A stretch of DNA of 64,000 nucleotides from positions 741,136-805,135 of the forward strand of contig JANWJF010000001.1 in NCBI GenBank assembly GCA_025449535.1, read 5' to 3'. The DNA comes from Candidatus Saccharimonadia bacterium. GTDB taxonomy: Bacteria; Patescibacteriota; SICC01. The translations under genes were made by a program, and so were the position numbers. Every line of letters begins with the position of its first letter. Position 1 is the stretch's first letter. The notes below the pieces were generated by a model that was given only the letters and a program-made list of their open reading frames with translations, made no database searches and had not been told where the DNA came from. This document shows positions 59,307 to 64,000 of the stretch, piece after piece.

Positions 59307-60776
59307 ATTTCAGAGAGTTTGATCCTGGCTCAGGATTAACGCTGGCGGCGCGCCTAACACATGCAAGTTGAATGATTACATAGCGGACGGCTGAGTATCA
59401 CGTTGGTACCTGCCTCAGACTCGGGGATACCCCCTGGAAACGGGGACTAATACCCGATAGTTCTCTTCGGAGTAAAGCTTTTGCGGTCTGAGAGGGGCCT
59501 GCGCCCGATTAGCTTGTTGGTGAGGTAACGGCTCACCAAGGCAACGATCGGTAGGTGGTCTGAGAGGATGATCACCCAGACTGGGACTGAGACACGGCCC
59601 AGACTCCTACGGGAGGCAGCAGTGAGGAATCTTGCACAATGGGGGAAACCCTGATGCAGCGACGCCGCGTGGGGGAAGAAGGTCTTCGGATCGTAAACTC
59701 CTTTTATTCGGGACGAACATTGACGGTACCGAATGAATAAGGACTGGCTAACCATGTGCCAGCAGCCGCGGTAATACATGGAGTCCAAGCGTTATCCGGA
59801 TTTACTGGGCGTAAAGCGTCCGTAGGCGTTTCGATAAGTTTTCAGTGAAATCCTTCCGCCCAACGGGAGAACTGTTGAAAAAACTATCGGAATCGAGTGT
59901 GGCAGAGGCAAGGGGAATTCCCGGTGTAGGGGTAAAATCCGTTGATATCGGGAAGAACACCAGTGGCGAAGGCGCCTTGCTGGGCCATTACTGACGCTCA
60001 GGGACGAAAGCGTGGGTAGCGAACGGGATTAGATACCCCGGTAGTCCACGCCGTAAACGATGGGTGCTAGGTATCTGGAGCATAGATCCTCCGGGTATCG
60101 AAGCTAACGCGTTAAGCACCCCGCCTGGGGAGTACGAGCGCAAGCTTAAAACTCAAAGGAATTGACGGGGACCCGCACAAGCGGTGGAGCGTGTGGTTTA
60201 ATTCGACGATAAGCGGAGAACCTTACCAGGGCTTGACATCCCGGTCGTATCTCTGGGAAACCAGAGAGTCAGTTTGCTGGACCGGTGACAGGCGCTGCAT
60301 GGCCGTCGTCAGCTCGTGTCGTGAGATGTTGGGTTAAGTCCCGCAACGAGCGCAACCCTCGTCGTCTGTTGTATTTCTCAGACGAGACTGCCTGGGTTAA
60401 CCAGGAGGAAGGTGAGGATGACGTCAGGTCAGCATGGCCCTTATGCCCTGGGCGACACACGCGCTACAATGGCCGGCACAATGGGATGCGAAAGCGCGAG
60501 CTGGAGCTAATCCCACCAAAGCCGGTCCCAGTTCGGATTGGAGGCTGCAACTCGCCTCCATGAAGCCGGAATCGCTAGTAATCGCAGATCAGCCACGCTG
60601 CGGTGAATACGTTCTCGGGTCTTGTACACACCGCCCGTCAAGTCAAGGAAGTCGGGAATACCCGAAGCGCCTTTAGCCAACCTTTTGGAGGCGAGGCACC
60701 ACGGTAGGCTCGGTAACCGGGACTAAGTCGTAACAAGGTATCCGTAGCGGAAGCTGCGGATGGATCACCTCCTTTC
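59307..60776 (+). rRNA. rrs: 16S ribosomal RNA (~1470 nt, compact V1/V2)
   Basis: 5' AGAGTTTGATCCTGGCTCAG; GTGCCAGCAGCCGCGGTAATAC; 3' GGATCACCTCCTTTC anti-SD. Confidence 0.93.
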
Positions 60777-61953
60777 TAGGGAACACTGCCGGAGTCCTTC
60801 GGGACGACGGCCATCCCAGATCTATCGTCGCGACGTCAGTCGCGACGTACCACGGCCCTTCGGAATTGTGGCCGAGCCAGGCATGTCTCCTGTTGTGAGG
60901 GAGCGGATAGGCCCTGTATTGGACGGGGTTCTTTTGGTACTGTTGAGTGGACGAGTAACTGGGCAAGGTTCTCGTTTCCACACGATCCCTACCCGACGGC
61001 CGGCTCTCCTCCGTCATAAGGTTGAATCGGTCGTCGGGTCAAAGCTTCTTAACACGTTGGTCCCAACATGTACTCCGGCTCGGGTTTAAGCGATATCCCC
61101 TAGAGCCTGGGACCACCGCCCGTCGTACGCATGGAGTCGCCAGGGGACGGCTGTCATGCATGTCGAACTGTACGTCGGGCTCAAACATCGAAGGGTGTCG
61201 TACCGACCGTCTTACGTGGTGCTAAACGGACGGCGGAGGACTCCTTCGCAGATCGCAATCTCTCCGTGGCTTTTAGGGGTAAAAGCGAAGGGCGAGGACA
61301 TGCGATTAATCGGCAGGGAAAGCCTCGCACCAGCGAGTACCTGCCCTCAACTTCAGCGGCCCGGCGCCGGACCTTGAGAATCACTTTCAAGTTCCAGCCG
61401 GGCCGTTCACGTTGCCATGGCGAATACCGCCTGTGCTACATTGTCTTTGCGTATGAGAGTGCGCTTCATGGGGTCCGGCGGCCCCTCCCGCGCTGCGTGA
61501 CAGAAAGCATTGCCACGTCAAGCCGACGCAAGGGCGGTAAGCAAGGCGACGCCGCCGGACAAACCTTTCAAAATCGTTCGGCAGATCCACCACCTCTACC
61601 GGTGCCCGCCTGTACGGGTAGCCGAGGAAATAGATTACTAGGGTGGTGCCCAGTAGGACTCCGATCACCGTATACGCGACCATACAAGGCCGTCGATCGT
61701 GTACGCTCTGTCGGGCTCAGTCCGAGTATCTGTCAACGTGGAGCCCGGTCTACCTCGTGGTCAGAAACAAACTGTCCGCAGGTCAGCAAACGGCTGGCGA
61801 TTTCGGCAGAGGAGTGCGTGCAGCCGTTCATCTCTGTTGACGCTTCGACGCATATGGCCCGGGACCGAGTTTGCAGGAGAAGTATCTTCCTCACTCGCCC
61901 CGGGCCATCGTCACGTCCGTCAGAAACACGTAGAATATATCTTGTTACGCATC

Positions 61954-62030
61954 GGGCGATTAGCTCAGTTGGTTAGAGCGCAGCACTGATAATGCTGAGG
62001 TCCCAGGTTCAAATCCTGGATCGCCCACCA
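61954..62030 (+). tRNA. tRNA-Ile (anticodon GAT)
   Basis: GGGCGATTAGCTCAGTTGGTTAGAGC…CTGATAA…GGTTCAAATCC…CCA cloverleaf. Confidence 0.9.
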
Positions 62031-62885
62031 AGCAGCGGTGGATAACCCGACAGGCAAGCACAGATAAGCCCGTAACCATCGAGCCACTTTTCCACATGTG
62101 GACTCGTTGACTGGCCCCGCCCGGCCACGTAGAGTCGAGGTTACCGCTTGATACGGCACCTCTCTCGGGACGTACCAAGCGAGCACCTTTTAACGATCTA
62201 GCAGGCTGCTCCGTCGGATCGACGGTCGATGCCACGGAGTAGTTTGCTAGACTTCGTTCTCCGGTTGATACAAGTGGAAGAAACGGTCGCTTAGGGCGCT
62301 TGCGTACTATACGACCGAGGACATCACTGGAACAGACATGCTGGACAATGGATCACAACGTACGGGGAGCTTGCTCCACGGACGAGGTGTATCTGGTGAG
62401 CAGTAGCGTCTGGACTTAGCCGCACGATACCCTGGGGGTCCAAACCTCAGGTGAGTGTGGCATTCCGAATAAGTTAGGACCGGGAATTGGAGGCTCTTGT
62501 TAGTCACTGAACGGGATGGTAAACCGTTCGGGAGGGACCTCTGAGCTTAGTACCCCCTTGTGGACAGGGTTGTCGAGAGACAGTACCTGTGGACACGTGA
62601 AAAGCGTGGATTGGGAACGGATAGCGTAACCTTAATCAGGAAATACGGACTGGCCTTGTGCCGACACGTAGGAGCCTGGTGGCGGGTACGTAAAACTTAA
62701 AGATCGGCCCCCTGGGCCGCCGCCTTAACGGCTCGTGGAGCAAGCGATGTAGTGATCTCCGGATCAAGACAGCGCTTCGCTCCCGAGTCGGGAAGGAATC
62801 ATAGAATCGACCTTGGTCAGTGCATACAGCACCCCGCGCTACCACAGGTCTTTTCTTTTTATGTAACGTGGGGATTTATGCGAGA

Positions 62886-63143
62886 ATGGACCGGATGGAT
62901 ATCGTCATCGCACTCATCCTCGTCGGGGCCGGCTTCCTGATGATCCTCAAGACGGACGGCGTGATCGGCTTCTTCGGCCGGAACTCCTGGGCGGAACGGC
63001 ACCTGGGTGCCGGCGGCAGTATCTCGTTCTACAAGCTGATCGGCGTGGTGCTGATCATCATCTCGATGCTCTGGATCACCGGCCTACTGGACAACCTGTT
63101 CCTGGGACCGTTCGGTTCGCTGTTCGGCGGGTTCAAGGGTTAA
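62886..63143 (+). CDS. small membrane protein (85 aa) encoded between tRNA-Ile and tRNA-Ala
   Basis: High GC3; two TM helices; Gly-rich C-terminus; alternative ATG at 62895. Confidence 0.5.
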   Translation: MDRMDIVIALILVGAGFLMILKTDGVIGFFGRNSWAERHLGAGGSISFYKLIGVVLIIISMLWITGLLDNLFLGPFGSLFGGFKG

Positions 63144-63162
63144 GTCGGTATACTATCCCTGC

Positions 63163-63238
63163 GGGCCGTTAGCTCAGCTGGCAGAGCGCCTGCTTTGCAA
63201 GCAGGAGGTCGTCGGTTCGATCCCGACACGGTCCACCA
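63163..63238 (+). tRNA. tRNA-Ala (anticodon TGC)
   Basis: G3:U70 wobble pair in the acceptor stem; anticodon loop CTTTGCAAG; encoded CCA. Confidence 0.9.
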
Positions 63239-63360
63239 CTCATATACATTTTCGAAGCCAAGGCTCCGAAAATGCGAGACGCGACTGAGATGGGTCGACT
63301 CGCGACAAAGCCGCGAGTCGAGGTAGTATTGAAACCTCAACGCGTTGCTATGCTGAAGTT

Positions 63361-64000
63361 ATGAAGGTTGCCGCCCAAGAGATACCCGCGTTCCAAGAGG
63401 CCGTCTGGAACCACTACCGTGAGTATGGCCGATCGTTTCCGTGGCGCGAGAAGCAGGACGCGTACTGCGTGCTGGTCTCGGAGATCATGCTCCAGCAGAC
63501 CCAGGCGGTCCGGGTCGTGCCGTACTTCGAGCGGTTCGTGGAACGCTTCCCGGATGTCCGCTCGCTGGCCCGGGGCCGGCTCGTGACGGTACTCAAGCTT
63601 TGGAACGGCCTCGGATACAACCGCCGCGCCCGGTTCCTGCACGAGGCCGCCAAGGCGGTCGTCCGGGAGCACCGCGGCGTCGTGCCGAGCACCGAAGCCG
63701 AACTGATGAAGCTCCCGGGAATCGGGCCGTACACGGCCGCCGCGGTGGCGGCATTCGCCGGCAACGAGCCGTCCGTGGTGATCGAGACGAACATCCGTAG
63801 CGTCTTCATCCACGAGTTCTTCGGCGATCGGGAAGGGGTGACGGACGCGGAGATAGCGCCGCTGGTCGAGGCCGCGGTGGACCGGGAGAACCCGCGTGAA
63901 TGGTACCAGGCGCTGATGGATTACGGCGCGCACCTCAAGAAACAGGGAATCAACCCATCCCGTCGGAGCGCGCACTATGCCCGGCAGTCGAAGTTCGAAG
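63361..64000 (+). CDS. HhH-GPD DNA glycosylase (MutY/Nth family), N-terminal part; continues beyond the window
   Basis: Hand-translated frame 1: …VLVSEIMLQQTQA…LWNGLGYNRRARFLHEAA…LMKLPGIGPYTAAAVAAFA…. Confidence 0.75.
   Translation, partial: MKVAAQEIPAFQEAVWNHYREYGRSFPWREKQDAYCVLVSEIMLQQTQAVRVVPYFERFVERFPDVRSLARGRLVTVLKLWNGLGYNRRARFLHEAAKAVVREHRGVVPSTEAELMKLPGIGPYTAAAVAAFAGNEPSVVIETNIRSVFIHEFFGDREGVTDAEIAPLVEAAVDRENPREWYQALMDYGAHLKKQGINPSRRSAHYARQSKFE

Follow-up and report, generated by a model that had tools for sequence, protein, structure and literature searches.

In Escherichia coli, the ribosomal RNA (rRNA) genes are organized in the canonical rrn operon, which has boxB-boxA-boxC antitermination leaders (boxA consensus TGCTCTTTAACAA, bound by NusB/NusE and located behind a hairpin downstream of the promoter) and RNase III processing stems. 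In the present work we analyzed the rRNA locus at the end of a 64,000-nucleotide (nt) stretch of contig JANWJF010000001.1 of Candidatus Saccharimonadia bacterium, called here the window, together with the sequence that follows it on the source contig. A preliminary description of the window had reported a 16S gene followed by transfer RNA (tRNA) and protein genes instead of 23S and 5S, and had proposed an unlinked arrangement. What we found is a single stretched locus, which keeps the canonical gene order on one strand and is probably transcribed as several units.

Arrangements of this kind have already been reported for Patescibacteria/Saccharibacteria-type small genomes. In the Candidate Phyla Radiation (CPR), Lui et al. 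(2021, PMC8172020, Fig 3C) described a class (type C) of loci "operonic with tRNAs and protein genes", in which gaps of 300-500 bp leave co-transcription uncertain. The locus analyzed here belongs to this class, since 16S, 23S and 5S lie in order on one strand with tRNAs and protein genes between them, and it presents neither of the arrangements of types D and E, in which 16S and 23S are over 2,000 bp apart with genes of the opposite strand between them, or are themselves on opposite strands. However, homing endonucleases are the common insert in the published class, whereas here a small membrane protein and a MutY-like glycosylase are fixed. Brewer et al. (2020, bioRxiv 10.1101/705046) applied the term unlinked to 16S and 23S genes separated by over 1,500 bp, and listed Patescibacteria as an unlinked clade. 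The 4,365 nt found here exceed that distance, and to this extent the preliminary description was right in pointing to an atypical locus; nevertheless, in that study the distance exceeded 6,000 bp in most unlinked pairs and averaged ~410 kb, in contrast with the 4.4 kb, canonical order, common strand and spacer tRNAs of this locus.

Regarding Saccharibacteria, in Nanosynbacter lyticus TM7x (PMC12424978) the segment from 16S to 23S contains pyrD and a gene for a hypothetical protein (7,069-bp amplicon), oral strains have three tRNAs in this interval, and the largest internal transcribed spacer (ITS) of one long-read amplicon study belonged to this group. Our locus shares with TM7x the very long interval with protein genes, but pyrD is absent from it, its tRNAs are two in number and the conserved gene pair is another one. 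A CPR-wide survey found the absence of insertions in rRNA genes to be a Saccharibacteria exception, and the 16S and 23S genes of this locus are likewise free of insertions. With the canonical rrn operon the locus has in common the gene order and strand, the spacer tRNA-Ile and tRNA-Ala, a leader hairpin followed by a boxA-like motif, predicted local processing helices at 16S and 23S, and a terminator after 5S. It differs in its 4.4-kb interval with protein genes, which replaces a spacer of at most 1,500 bp with tRNAs only, in the additional predicted internal promoters and terminators, and in a third leader with a boxA-like motif, downstream of which no rRNA can be recognized. In the literature searched, we found no description of the clade-wide pair of passenger genes, of comparative evidence on internal promoters and terminators, or of the boxA-bearing non-coding unit.

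Layout of the locus and its conservation in relatives

By an exact-protein look-up with the TauE-like gene located immediately upstream of 16S, we reached the source contig of the window, JGI 3300035167 Ga0373474_0000001 (812,893 bp, hereafter L001). Window and contig present 0 mismatches across 15,770 nt, and window positions equal L001 positions plus 48230. Rfam and ARAGORN located the 16S, tRNA-Ile and tRNA-Ala genes where the preliminary description had placed them (Table 1), with a spacer of 1,178 nt between 16S and tRNA-Ile and an interval of 1,132 nt between both tRNAs; the 16S gene is full length and without insertions. Its statement that no 23S or 5S follows is correct for the 64-kb window, in which Rfam found neither gene, but not for the contig, because the window edge cuts the locus before 23S. 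This gene starts 1,141 nt past the window end, 4,365 nt after 16S and on the same strand, and 5S comes next. The presence of 23S shortly past position 64000, behind a spacer of unusual length, was the very finding that the description had named as contrary to its own proposal.

The complete one-strand layout is gyrB, gyrA, DUF212, TauE, 16S, tRNA-Ile, a non-coding unit, a small open reading frame (ORF), tRNA-Ala, the glycosylase gene, a 160-amino-acid (aa) ORF, 23S, 5S and a terminator. Three called protein genes (small membrane protein, MutY-like glycosylase and 160-aa ORF) occupy the interval between 16S and 23S, where all calls on L001 are on the + strand except one of 35 aa that overlaps the 160-aa ORF. 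This is a single order-preserving rRNA locus in a small (~0.81 Mb contig), high-G+C genome, probably of Saccharibacteria-related Patescibacteria.

Table 1. Features of the rRNA locus. Positions past 64000 are window-equivalent and were obtained from L001.
Feature	Window position	L001 position	Strand	Remarks
Putative 16S promoter, TTGTCT-17 nt-TAGAAT	59012-59040	10782-10810	+	266 nt upstream of 16S
16S leader: small hairpin (59198-59211), then boxA-like GTTCTTTCACAACAGG	59198-59226	10968-10981 (hairpin)	+	Fold prediction
16S rRNA	59307-60775	11077-12545	+	Rfam RF00177, 1531.5 bits, model positions 1-1533
3' strand of predicted 16S processing stem	60889-60906		+	Complement of the leader boxA-like motif
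Terminator-like G+C-rich hairpin, then CTTTTGG	60910-60940	12680-12700 (hairpin)	+	Immediately 3' of the processing stem
Lineage-specific non-coding spacer, ~0.97 kb	60941-61907		.	No Pfam or Rfam matches; flat codon-position GC
Putative tRNA-Ile promoter, TCGTCA-17 nt-TAGAAT	61908-61936	13678-13706	+	-10 ends 17 nt before tRNA
tRNA-Ile(GAT), CCA encoded	61954-62030		+	Rfam and ARAGORN
Clade-conserved predicted promoter, TTGACT-17 nt-TAGAGT	62107-62135		+	77 nt downstream of tRNA-Ile
Unit leader: hairpin 1 (CCUCUCUC loop), single-stranded boxA-like CACCTTTTAACGATC, long hairpin 2	62136-62262		+	Predicted fold
Non-coding middle of the unit, variable and G-rich (GC skew up to +0.25)	62263-62809		+	3' part holds a predicted hairpin with covariation
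Intrinsic-terminator-like hairpin and TCTTTTCTTTTT	62810-62860	14580-14619 (hairpin)	+	-13.5 kcal/mol; ~35 nt before small ORF
Small membrane protein gene	62886-63143		+	85 aa from ATG 62886 or 82 aa from ATG 62895
-10-like TATACT	63149-63154		+	8 nt before tRNA-Ala
tRNA-Ala(TGC), CCA encoded	63163-63238		+	Rfam and ARAGORN
MutY-like HhH-GPD glycosylase gene, 271 aa, ATG 63361	63361-64176 (window-equivalent)	15131-15946	+	Pfam HhH-GPD, HhH
160-aa ORF	64234-64716 (window-equivalent)		+	Ahead of 23S
Promoter-like site, TTGCTA-18-TATACT	64909-64938 (window-equivalent)		+	~200 nt before 23S
boxA-like motif CCTTAACAAT	65002-65011 (window-equivalent)		+	Before 23S, conserved
23S rRNA	65141-68173 (window-equivalent)	16911-19943	+	Sought on L001
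5S rRNA	68333-68448 (window-equivalent)	20103-20218	+	Sought on L001
Strong terminator after 5S: canonical G+C hairpin and T-run	68464-68492 (window-equivalent)		+	Sequence prediction

Relatives of the locus were gathered in two ways. When species-representative genomes were scanned with the glycosylase protein, 80 loci were obtained, only two of which (L006 and L008) had rRNA genes nearby; L086, L087, L088, L094, L095 and L096, as well as one place without DNA, were added by a search with the small protein and contig look-ups. A scan of metagenome contigs with the small-protein alignment gave a single locus. The 16S gene of L006, a Patescibacteria metagenome-assembled genome from Lake Baikal, is 87% identical to ours, and for L006 (labelled Patescibacteria), L008 (labelled Candidatus Saccharibacteria; only the 3' 210 nt compared), L087, L094 and L096 as a whole the identity is 87-89%. 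The shared order is tRNA-Ile, small ORF, tRNA-Ala, HhH-GPD gene and, where the contig reaches that far, 23S-5S. At least seven related lineages have the core rRNA order in common: it was found in L006, L008, L087, L094, L095 and L096, and in part also in L086 and L088, with 16S-23S intervals of 3,716 nt (L006), 4,872 nt (L008) and 5,364 nt (L087). The remaining genes of the interval differ among loci: L006 has a HAD-like gene, L008 and L095 have a photolyase and a 336-aa membrane protein, L087 has MarR, cupredoxin and others, and L088 has two minus-strand genes. Upstream, the succession gyrA, DUF212 and then 16S is kept across the clade (window 52660-59007; L006, L087, L094, L095 and L096), with gyrB where the loci extend far enough, and this neighbourhood could serve as an anchor in searches for the rRNA locus in fragmented assemblies.

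Predicted transcription units

In our judgement the stretched one-strand locus probably acts as a chain of separately promoted units and not as one operon. Its layout is read directly from the contig; the division into units is probable, as the preliminary description had hinted, on the comparative evidence of promoters and terminators predicted at conserved positions. According to this explanation, the 16S unit would have its own promoter, boxA-like leader, local processing stem and, at its end, a terminator-like hairpin, and tRNA-Ile would be expressed from its own -10 box close upstream. A clade-conserved promoter would then direct an rRNA-leader-like transcript (hairpin, boxA-like motif, hairpin), ended by an intrinsic terminator before the small ORF. 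The small ORF and tRNA-Ala would each have their own -10 box, with the later genes grouped with tRNA-Ala, while the 23S-5S unit would comprise the promoter-like site ~200 nt upstream, the boxA-like CCTTAACAAT, its own processing stem and the strong terminator after 5S. The protein genes would be passengers that entered the former spacer, of which two, those for the small membrane protein and the glycosylase, would have reached fixation in the clade, while the others vary by lineage.

The preliminary description had noticed TAGAAT boxes upstream of both 16S and tRNA-Ile, each preceded by a common word. Both boxes are present (59035-59040 and 61931-61936), and ATATATCT does occur at the two sites, but it precedes TAGAAT only at 16S; at tRNA-Ile it overlaps and follows the box. 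This word has 2 matches in the 64 kb (59024 and 61935) versus 0.14 expected, and the 8-mer CGTAGAAT, common to the 16S and tRNA-Ile sites, has 4 versus 0.66 expected. The five TAGAAT hexamers on the + strand of the window are all intergenic, and four of them lie shortly upstream of a tRNA gene, 16S or an ORF; the fifth (62802) is within the non-coding spacer ahead of the small ORF. It is the position of the putative 16S promoter and the rarity of CGTAGAAT and ATATATCT, and not the counts of sites, that make the case for it.

In the 16S leader, the small predicted hairpin is followed by GTTCTTTCACAACAGG, called boxA-like for its resemblance to the E. coli consensus, and the same motif is also present in L006. 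This boxA-like motif is at the same time the 5' strand of the predicted 16S processing stem, in which 59209-59226 pairs with 60889-60906 (83% complementarity). The homologous trailer strand CCTTCTTGTTGT.AGAGA aligns in L087, L008, L086 and L088, and is also present in L094 and L096. At the aligned position of the terminator-like hairpin that follows, the first four of these loci have a hairpin with a T-run, and L094 and L096 have canonical terminators; in all, five or more lineages have a hairpin with a T-run there.

The first spacer, between this hairpin and the putative tRNA-Ile promoter, is specific to the lineage: the corresponding spacer is much shorter in L006 (261 nt) and L087 (194 nt), and BLASTN among the spacers of L001, L006 and L008 gave matches only at the tRNAs, the small ORF and the glycosylase gene. 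Its segment 61100-61460 folds as a row of long hairpins (z = -3.7 versus shuffled sequence), with a 200-nt sliding window reaching z = -5.7 on the + strand versus -1.9 on the - strand; no homologue of this segment was found among the spacers of the relatives compared. The spacer had been described as ORF-poor. Nothing supports hidden or decayed protein genes in the spacers, since ten spacer ORFs had no Pfam match at E <= 1 and their codon-position GC is flat (0.50-0.67), in comparison with a GC at third positions (GC3) of 0.85-0.89 in the real genes of the region (0.68 in TauE). Rfam 15 at a permissive threshold (E <= 1), run on the window region and on the loci of eight relatives, returned only rRNA, tRNA and a sub-threshold antisense RF04354 over tRNA-Ile, and identities of the spacers with any known riboswitch, T-box, RNase P, 6S, SRP, tmRNA or intron were discarded.

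Upstream of tRNA-Ile, a TACAAT or TAGAAT box 13-27 nt from the gene is found in four other lineages (L008/L086/L095, L087, L094 and L096), in spacers that otherwise cannot be aligned; it was not found in L006 and L088. Concerning the 23S-5S unit, a promoter-like site lies 184-252 nt upstream of 23S in L001, L006, L008, L087, L095 and L096, and CCTTAAYAAT stands ahead of 23S in L001, L008, L094, L095 and L096 and in 0/90 other loci. The flanks of 23S are predicted to pair with each other (z = -4.9). Motifs resembling TGCTCTTTAACAA appear at three places: in the 16S leader, after the post-tRNA-Ile promoter (the closest one being TGCTCTTTTAATTTC of L087) and before 23S. Within the window, the only match to CCTTAACAAT is at 20183-20192 on the - strand (0.03 expected).

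The non-coding unit between tRNA-Ile and the small ORF

The post-tRNA-Ile unit, from predicted promoter to terminator, extends over window positions 62107-62860 (L001 13877-14630), and over 7367-8165 in L006, 5882-6380 in L087, 7201-7990 in L094 and 7806-7965 in L096. In the spacer between tRNA-Ile and the small ORF, the pattern TTGAC-N17/18-TAnnnT was found on the + strand in 7/7 independent lineages and on the - strand in none, with a chance of at least one match per spacer of 0.006-0.039, as estimated from shuffles. It should be noted that L094 and L096 were fetched only after this pattern had been fixed.

Downstream of the promoter, ~125 nt of leader are near-invariant in the L001 group (L091-L093), and the next ~550 nt barely align. 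The comparison of L001, L006 and L008 by BLASTN had shown no similarity in this part, and the leader emerged only when closer relatives were compared. Its predicted fold is more stable than that of shuffled sequences (z = -6.9 in L001 and -6.0 in L006, with the same architecture), and some of its pairs show compensatory changes. In L087, the boxA-like TGCTCTTTTAATTTC lies five bases after the -10 box of this promoter. The contigs of L091-L093, the closest relatives (Logan, ~1.2 kb each), begin inside tRNA-Ile and stop inside tRNA-Ala; the small-protein family is mostly found on contigs of ~1 kb because short-read assemblies break at the conserved tRNAs.

The middle of the unit is almost missing in L096 (near zero) and otherwise reaches lengths of up to about 600 nt or more. 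Towards its end, 62560-62880 is more stable than shuffles (z = -3.9), and 12 predicted pairs across the penultimate and terminator hairpins present compensatory changes. A hairpin with a T-run equivalent to the predicted terminator precedes the ORF in all lineages (L006, L087, L088, L091, L092, L094 and L096).

As regards the nature of this unit, we propose tentatively that ~62142-62860 may be the gene of a non-coding RNA not described so far, located within the rRNA locus in a Saccharibacteria-related clade, with its own near-consensus promoter, an rRNA-style leader, an expandable G-rich body and a terminator. No Rfam family matched the unit in any lineage scanned. The RNase P RNAs of CPR bacteria are divergent (Lui et al. 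2021, PMC8172020), and no RNase P RNA was matched within the window; a diverged RNase P RNA was rejected as an identity for the unit, which shrinks to ~125 nt in L096 and on reading shows no conserved P4-type motifs. The conserved leader as a long-range partner in a processing stem was rejected too, with z = -1.3 against the 3' flank of 23S and z = +0.2 against the 16S leader; as duplex folding over long flanks over-extends, only strong local helices were used. If the proposal holds, this would be the third RNA, next to 16S and 23S, to be loaded with antitermination factors, and it could have a role in ribosome biogenesis; another option is that the unit is a checkpoint that lets only modified polymerase pass toward tRNA-Ala and 23S. 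The unit is a concrete candidate for a new RNA.

Another explanation, which we regard as possible without favouring it, is that the spacers are debris of decayed genes or mobile elements, and that transcription from the post-tRNA-Ile promoter simply serves the small ORF, which would have a long 5' untranslated region containing an attenuator. The order promoter, leader, terminator and ORF is the classic layout of attenuation, and both the lineage-specific, unalignable first spacer and the extreme length variation in the middle of the second one would be expected of debris. However, the two spacers fold much better than shuffles on the + strand, the leader and the hairpins of the 3' end show both conservation and covariation, the spacer ORFs give no pseudogene signal, and Rfam found no riboswitch or T-box. 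Furthermore, in the L001 group a -10-like hexamer lies downstream of the terminator, 6-7 nt before the ATG of the small ORF; in the window this is GAGAAT at 62882-62887, 7 nt ahead of the second ATG, a placement that would give a leaderless mRNA for the 82-aa form.

Readings of the whole locus and its passenger genes

With respect to the locus as a whole, the main contender is one long operon, in which polymerase starting at the 16S promoter and modified at boxA would read through to 5S, the internal promoters being minor or auxiliary. We find it rather improbable. It accords with the common strand of all genes from 16S to 5S and with the published classification, which counts such loci as operonic (Lui et al. 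2021, PMC8172020). Several further points weigh against separate units. All promoters and terminators at the locus are sequence predictions, and those of L001 are not more numerous than in shuffles (5 promoter-like sites versus 3.8 expected, and 9 terminator-like versus 9.0), so that only their positional conservation in relatives carries weight. The T-run after the 16S hairpin is weak in this genome, and L006 has neither the post-16S terminator nor a -10 box within the 261 nt that separate 16S from tRNA-Ile, so these two genes may be co-transcribed there. In addition, the boxA-like motifs at the three places imply antitermination, and read-through could make the locus functionally one operon. 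As to the setting, rRNA was inspected at one locus of the genome only, and the affiliation to Saccharibacteria leans on the 87-89% identity of 16S, only some of the relatives being so labelled. On the other side, canonical intrinsic terminators stand right after the 16S trailer in L087, L094 and L096, and before the small ORF in all lineages; a near-consensus -35/-10 pair follows tRNA-Ile in 7/7 lineages and another pair precedes 23S; and the interval of L088 includes minus-strand genes.

That the rRNA genes are truly unlinked, with 16S alone and 23S-5S at a distant, unrelated locus, is very improbable. The absence of 23S and 5S from the window and the distance above 1,500 bp had spoken for it, as does L088, in which no 16S was found within 5.4 kb upstream of tRNA-Ile. 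In this relative the 16S trailer strand CCTTCTTGTTGTGAGAGAA and the hairpin with its T-run remain (4753-4830), directly after a protein gene, which indicates either a recent relocation of 16S or a mis-join of the contig. For this genome the unlinked arrangement is refuted, since 23S follows 16S on the same strand with the tRNAs in canonical order, as it also does in L006, L008, L087, L094, L095 and L096. Finally, the preliminary description had been concerned about an assembly chimera at the 3' end of 16S. Metagenome assemblies are often interrupted at rRNA regions; here, L003, L004 and L005 terminate in 16S or beside it, and L091-L093 break at tRNAs. Nevertheless, a chimera or collapsed repeat at this place is extremely unlikely, because L002, a 809,791-bp contig from a different sample, is identical to L001 across the 20,407 bases shared from upstream of 16S to past 5S, and at least six divergent relatives present the same order.

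Taken with the chain of separately promoted units, these comparisons suggest that a Saccharibacteria-like clade turned its single rRNA operon into units with their own promoters and terminators while the ancestral order was kept. If so, the 1:1 coupling of 16S and 23S synthesis could loosen in organisms with one rRNA copy, and the case bears on the question, open in the literature, of whether loci "operonic with protein genes" are real operons. From a practical point of view, a 16S "without" 23S at the edge of a window or contig should not be called unlinked, and distance thresholds such as 1,500 bp merge order-preserving, gene-invaded loci with truly dispersed genes. Methods based on 16S-ITS-23S amplicons miss these taxa because the interval is long.

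The small protein gene that the preliminary description had seen before tRNA-Ala is real, with a GC3 of 0.88 and conservation between tRNA-Ile and tRNA-Ala in L006, L008, L086, L087, L088, L094, L095 and L096. Its family comprises 54 homologous clusters and has no Pfam domain. The MutY/Nth-like gene noted at the window end was confirmed by Pfam HhH-GPD and HhH and by an NCBIfam MutY match, which covers residues 11-192 only, is below the equivalog cut-off and leaves out the MutY C-terminal domain, lacking in this protein. With one cysteine in 271 aa, the usual four-cysteine iron-sulfur loop is impossible. The tail gives a weak, sub-threshold Pfam match to the HVO_A0261 N-terminal domain, presumably helix-turn-helix-like. 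Within the clade, the homologues of the glycosylase occupy the same position in the rRNA locus; of the 44 full-length homologues, the majority lie away from rRNA genes, and the distant homologues of the small protein (L089 and L090) are outside rRNA loci, so the linkage of both genes to rRNA is limited to the clade. The 160-aa ORF had no Pfam or NCBIfam match and no similarity to the L006 ORF at the same place; it may or may not be a real gene.

Some minor observations concern the surroundings of tRNA-Ala. The two hairpins that follow it (63245-63338; L001 15015-15108) match in reverse orientation the 23S-5S spacer of L006 (13658-13750), with 73% identity over 95 nt, which may reflect mere palindromic hairpins. 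Upstream of tRNA-Ala, TATACT is also present in L006, L008 and L086, with TAGGAT and TACGAT in L094 and L096. In the window, the -10-like TAGAAT at 3442-3447 and the TATACT at 63149-63154 end exactly 8 nt before tRNA-Leu (3456) and tRNA-Ala (63163), respectively, a distance for which the predicted leaders would be only ~2 nt long.

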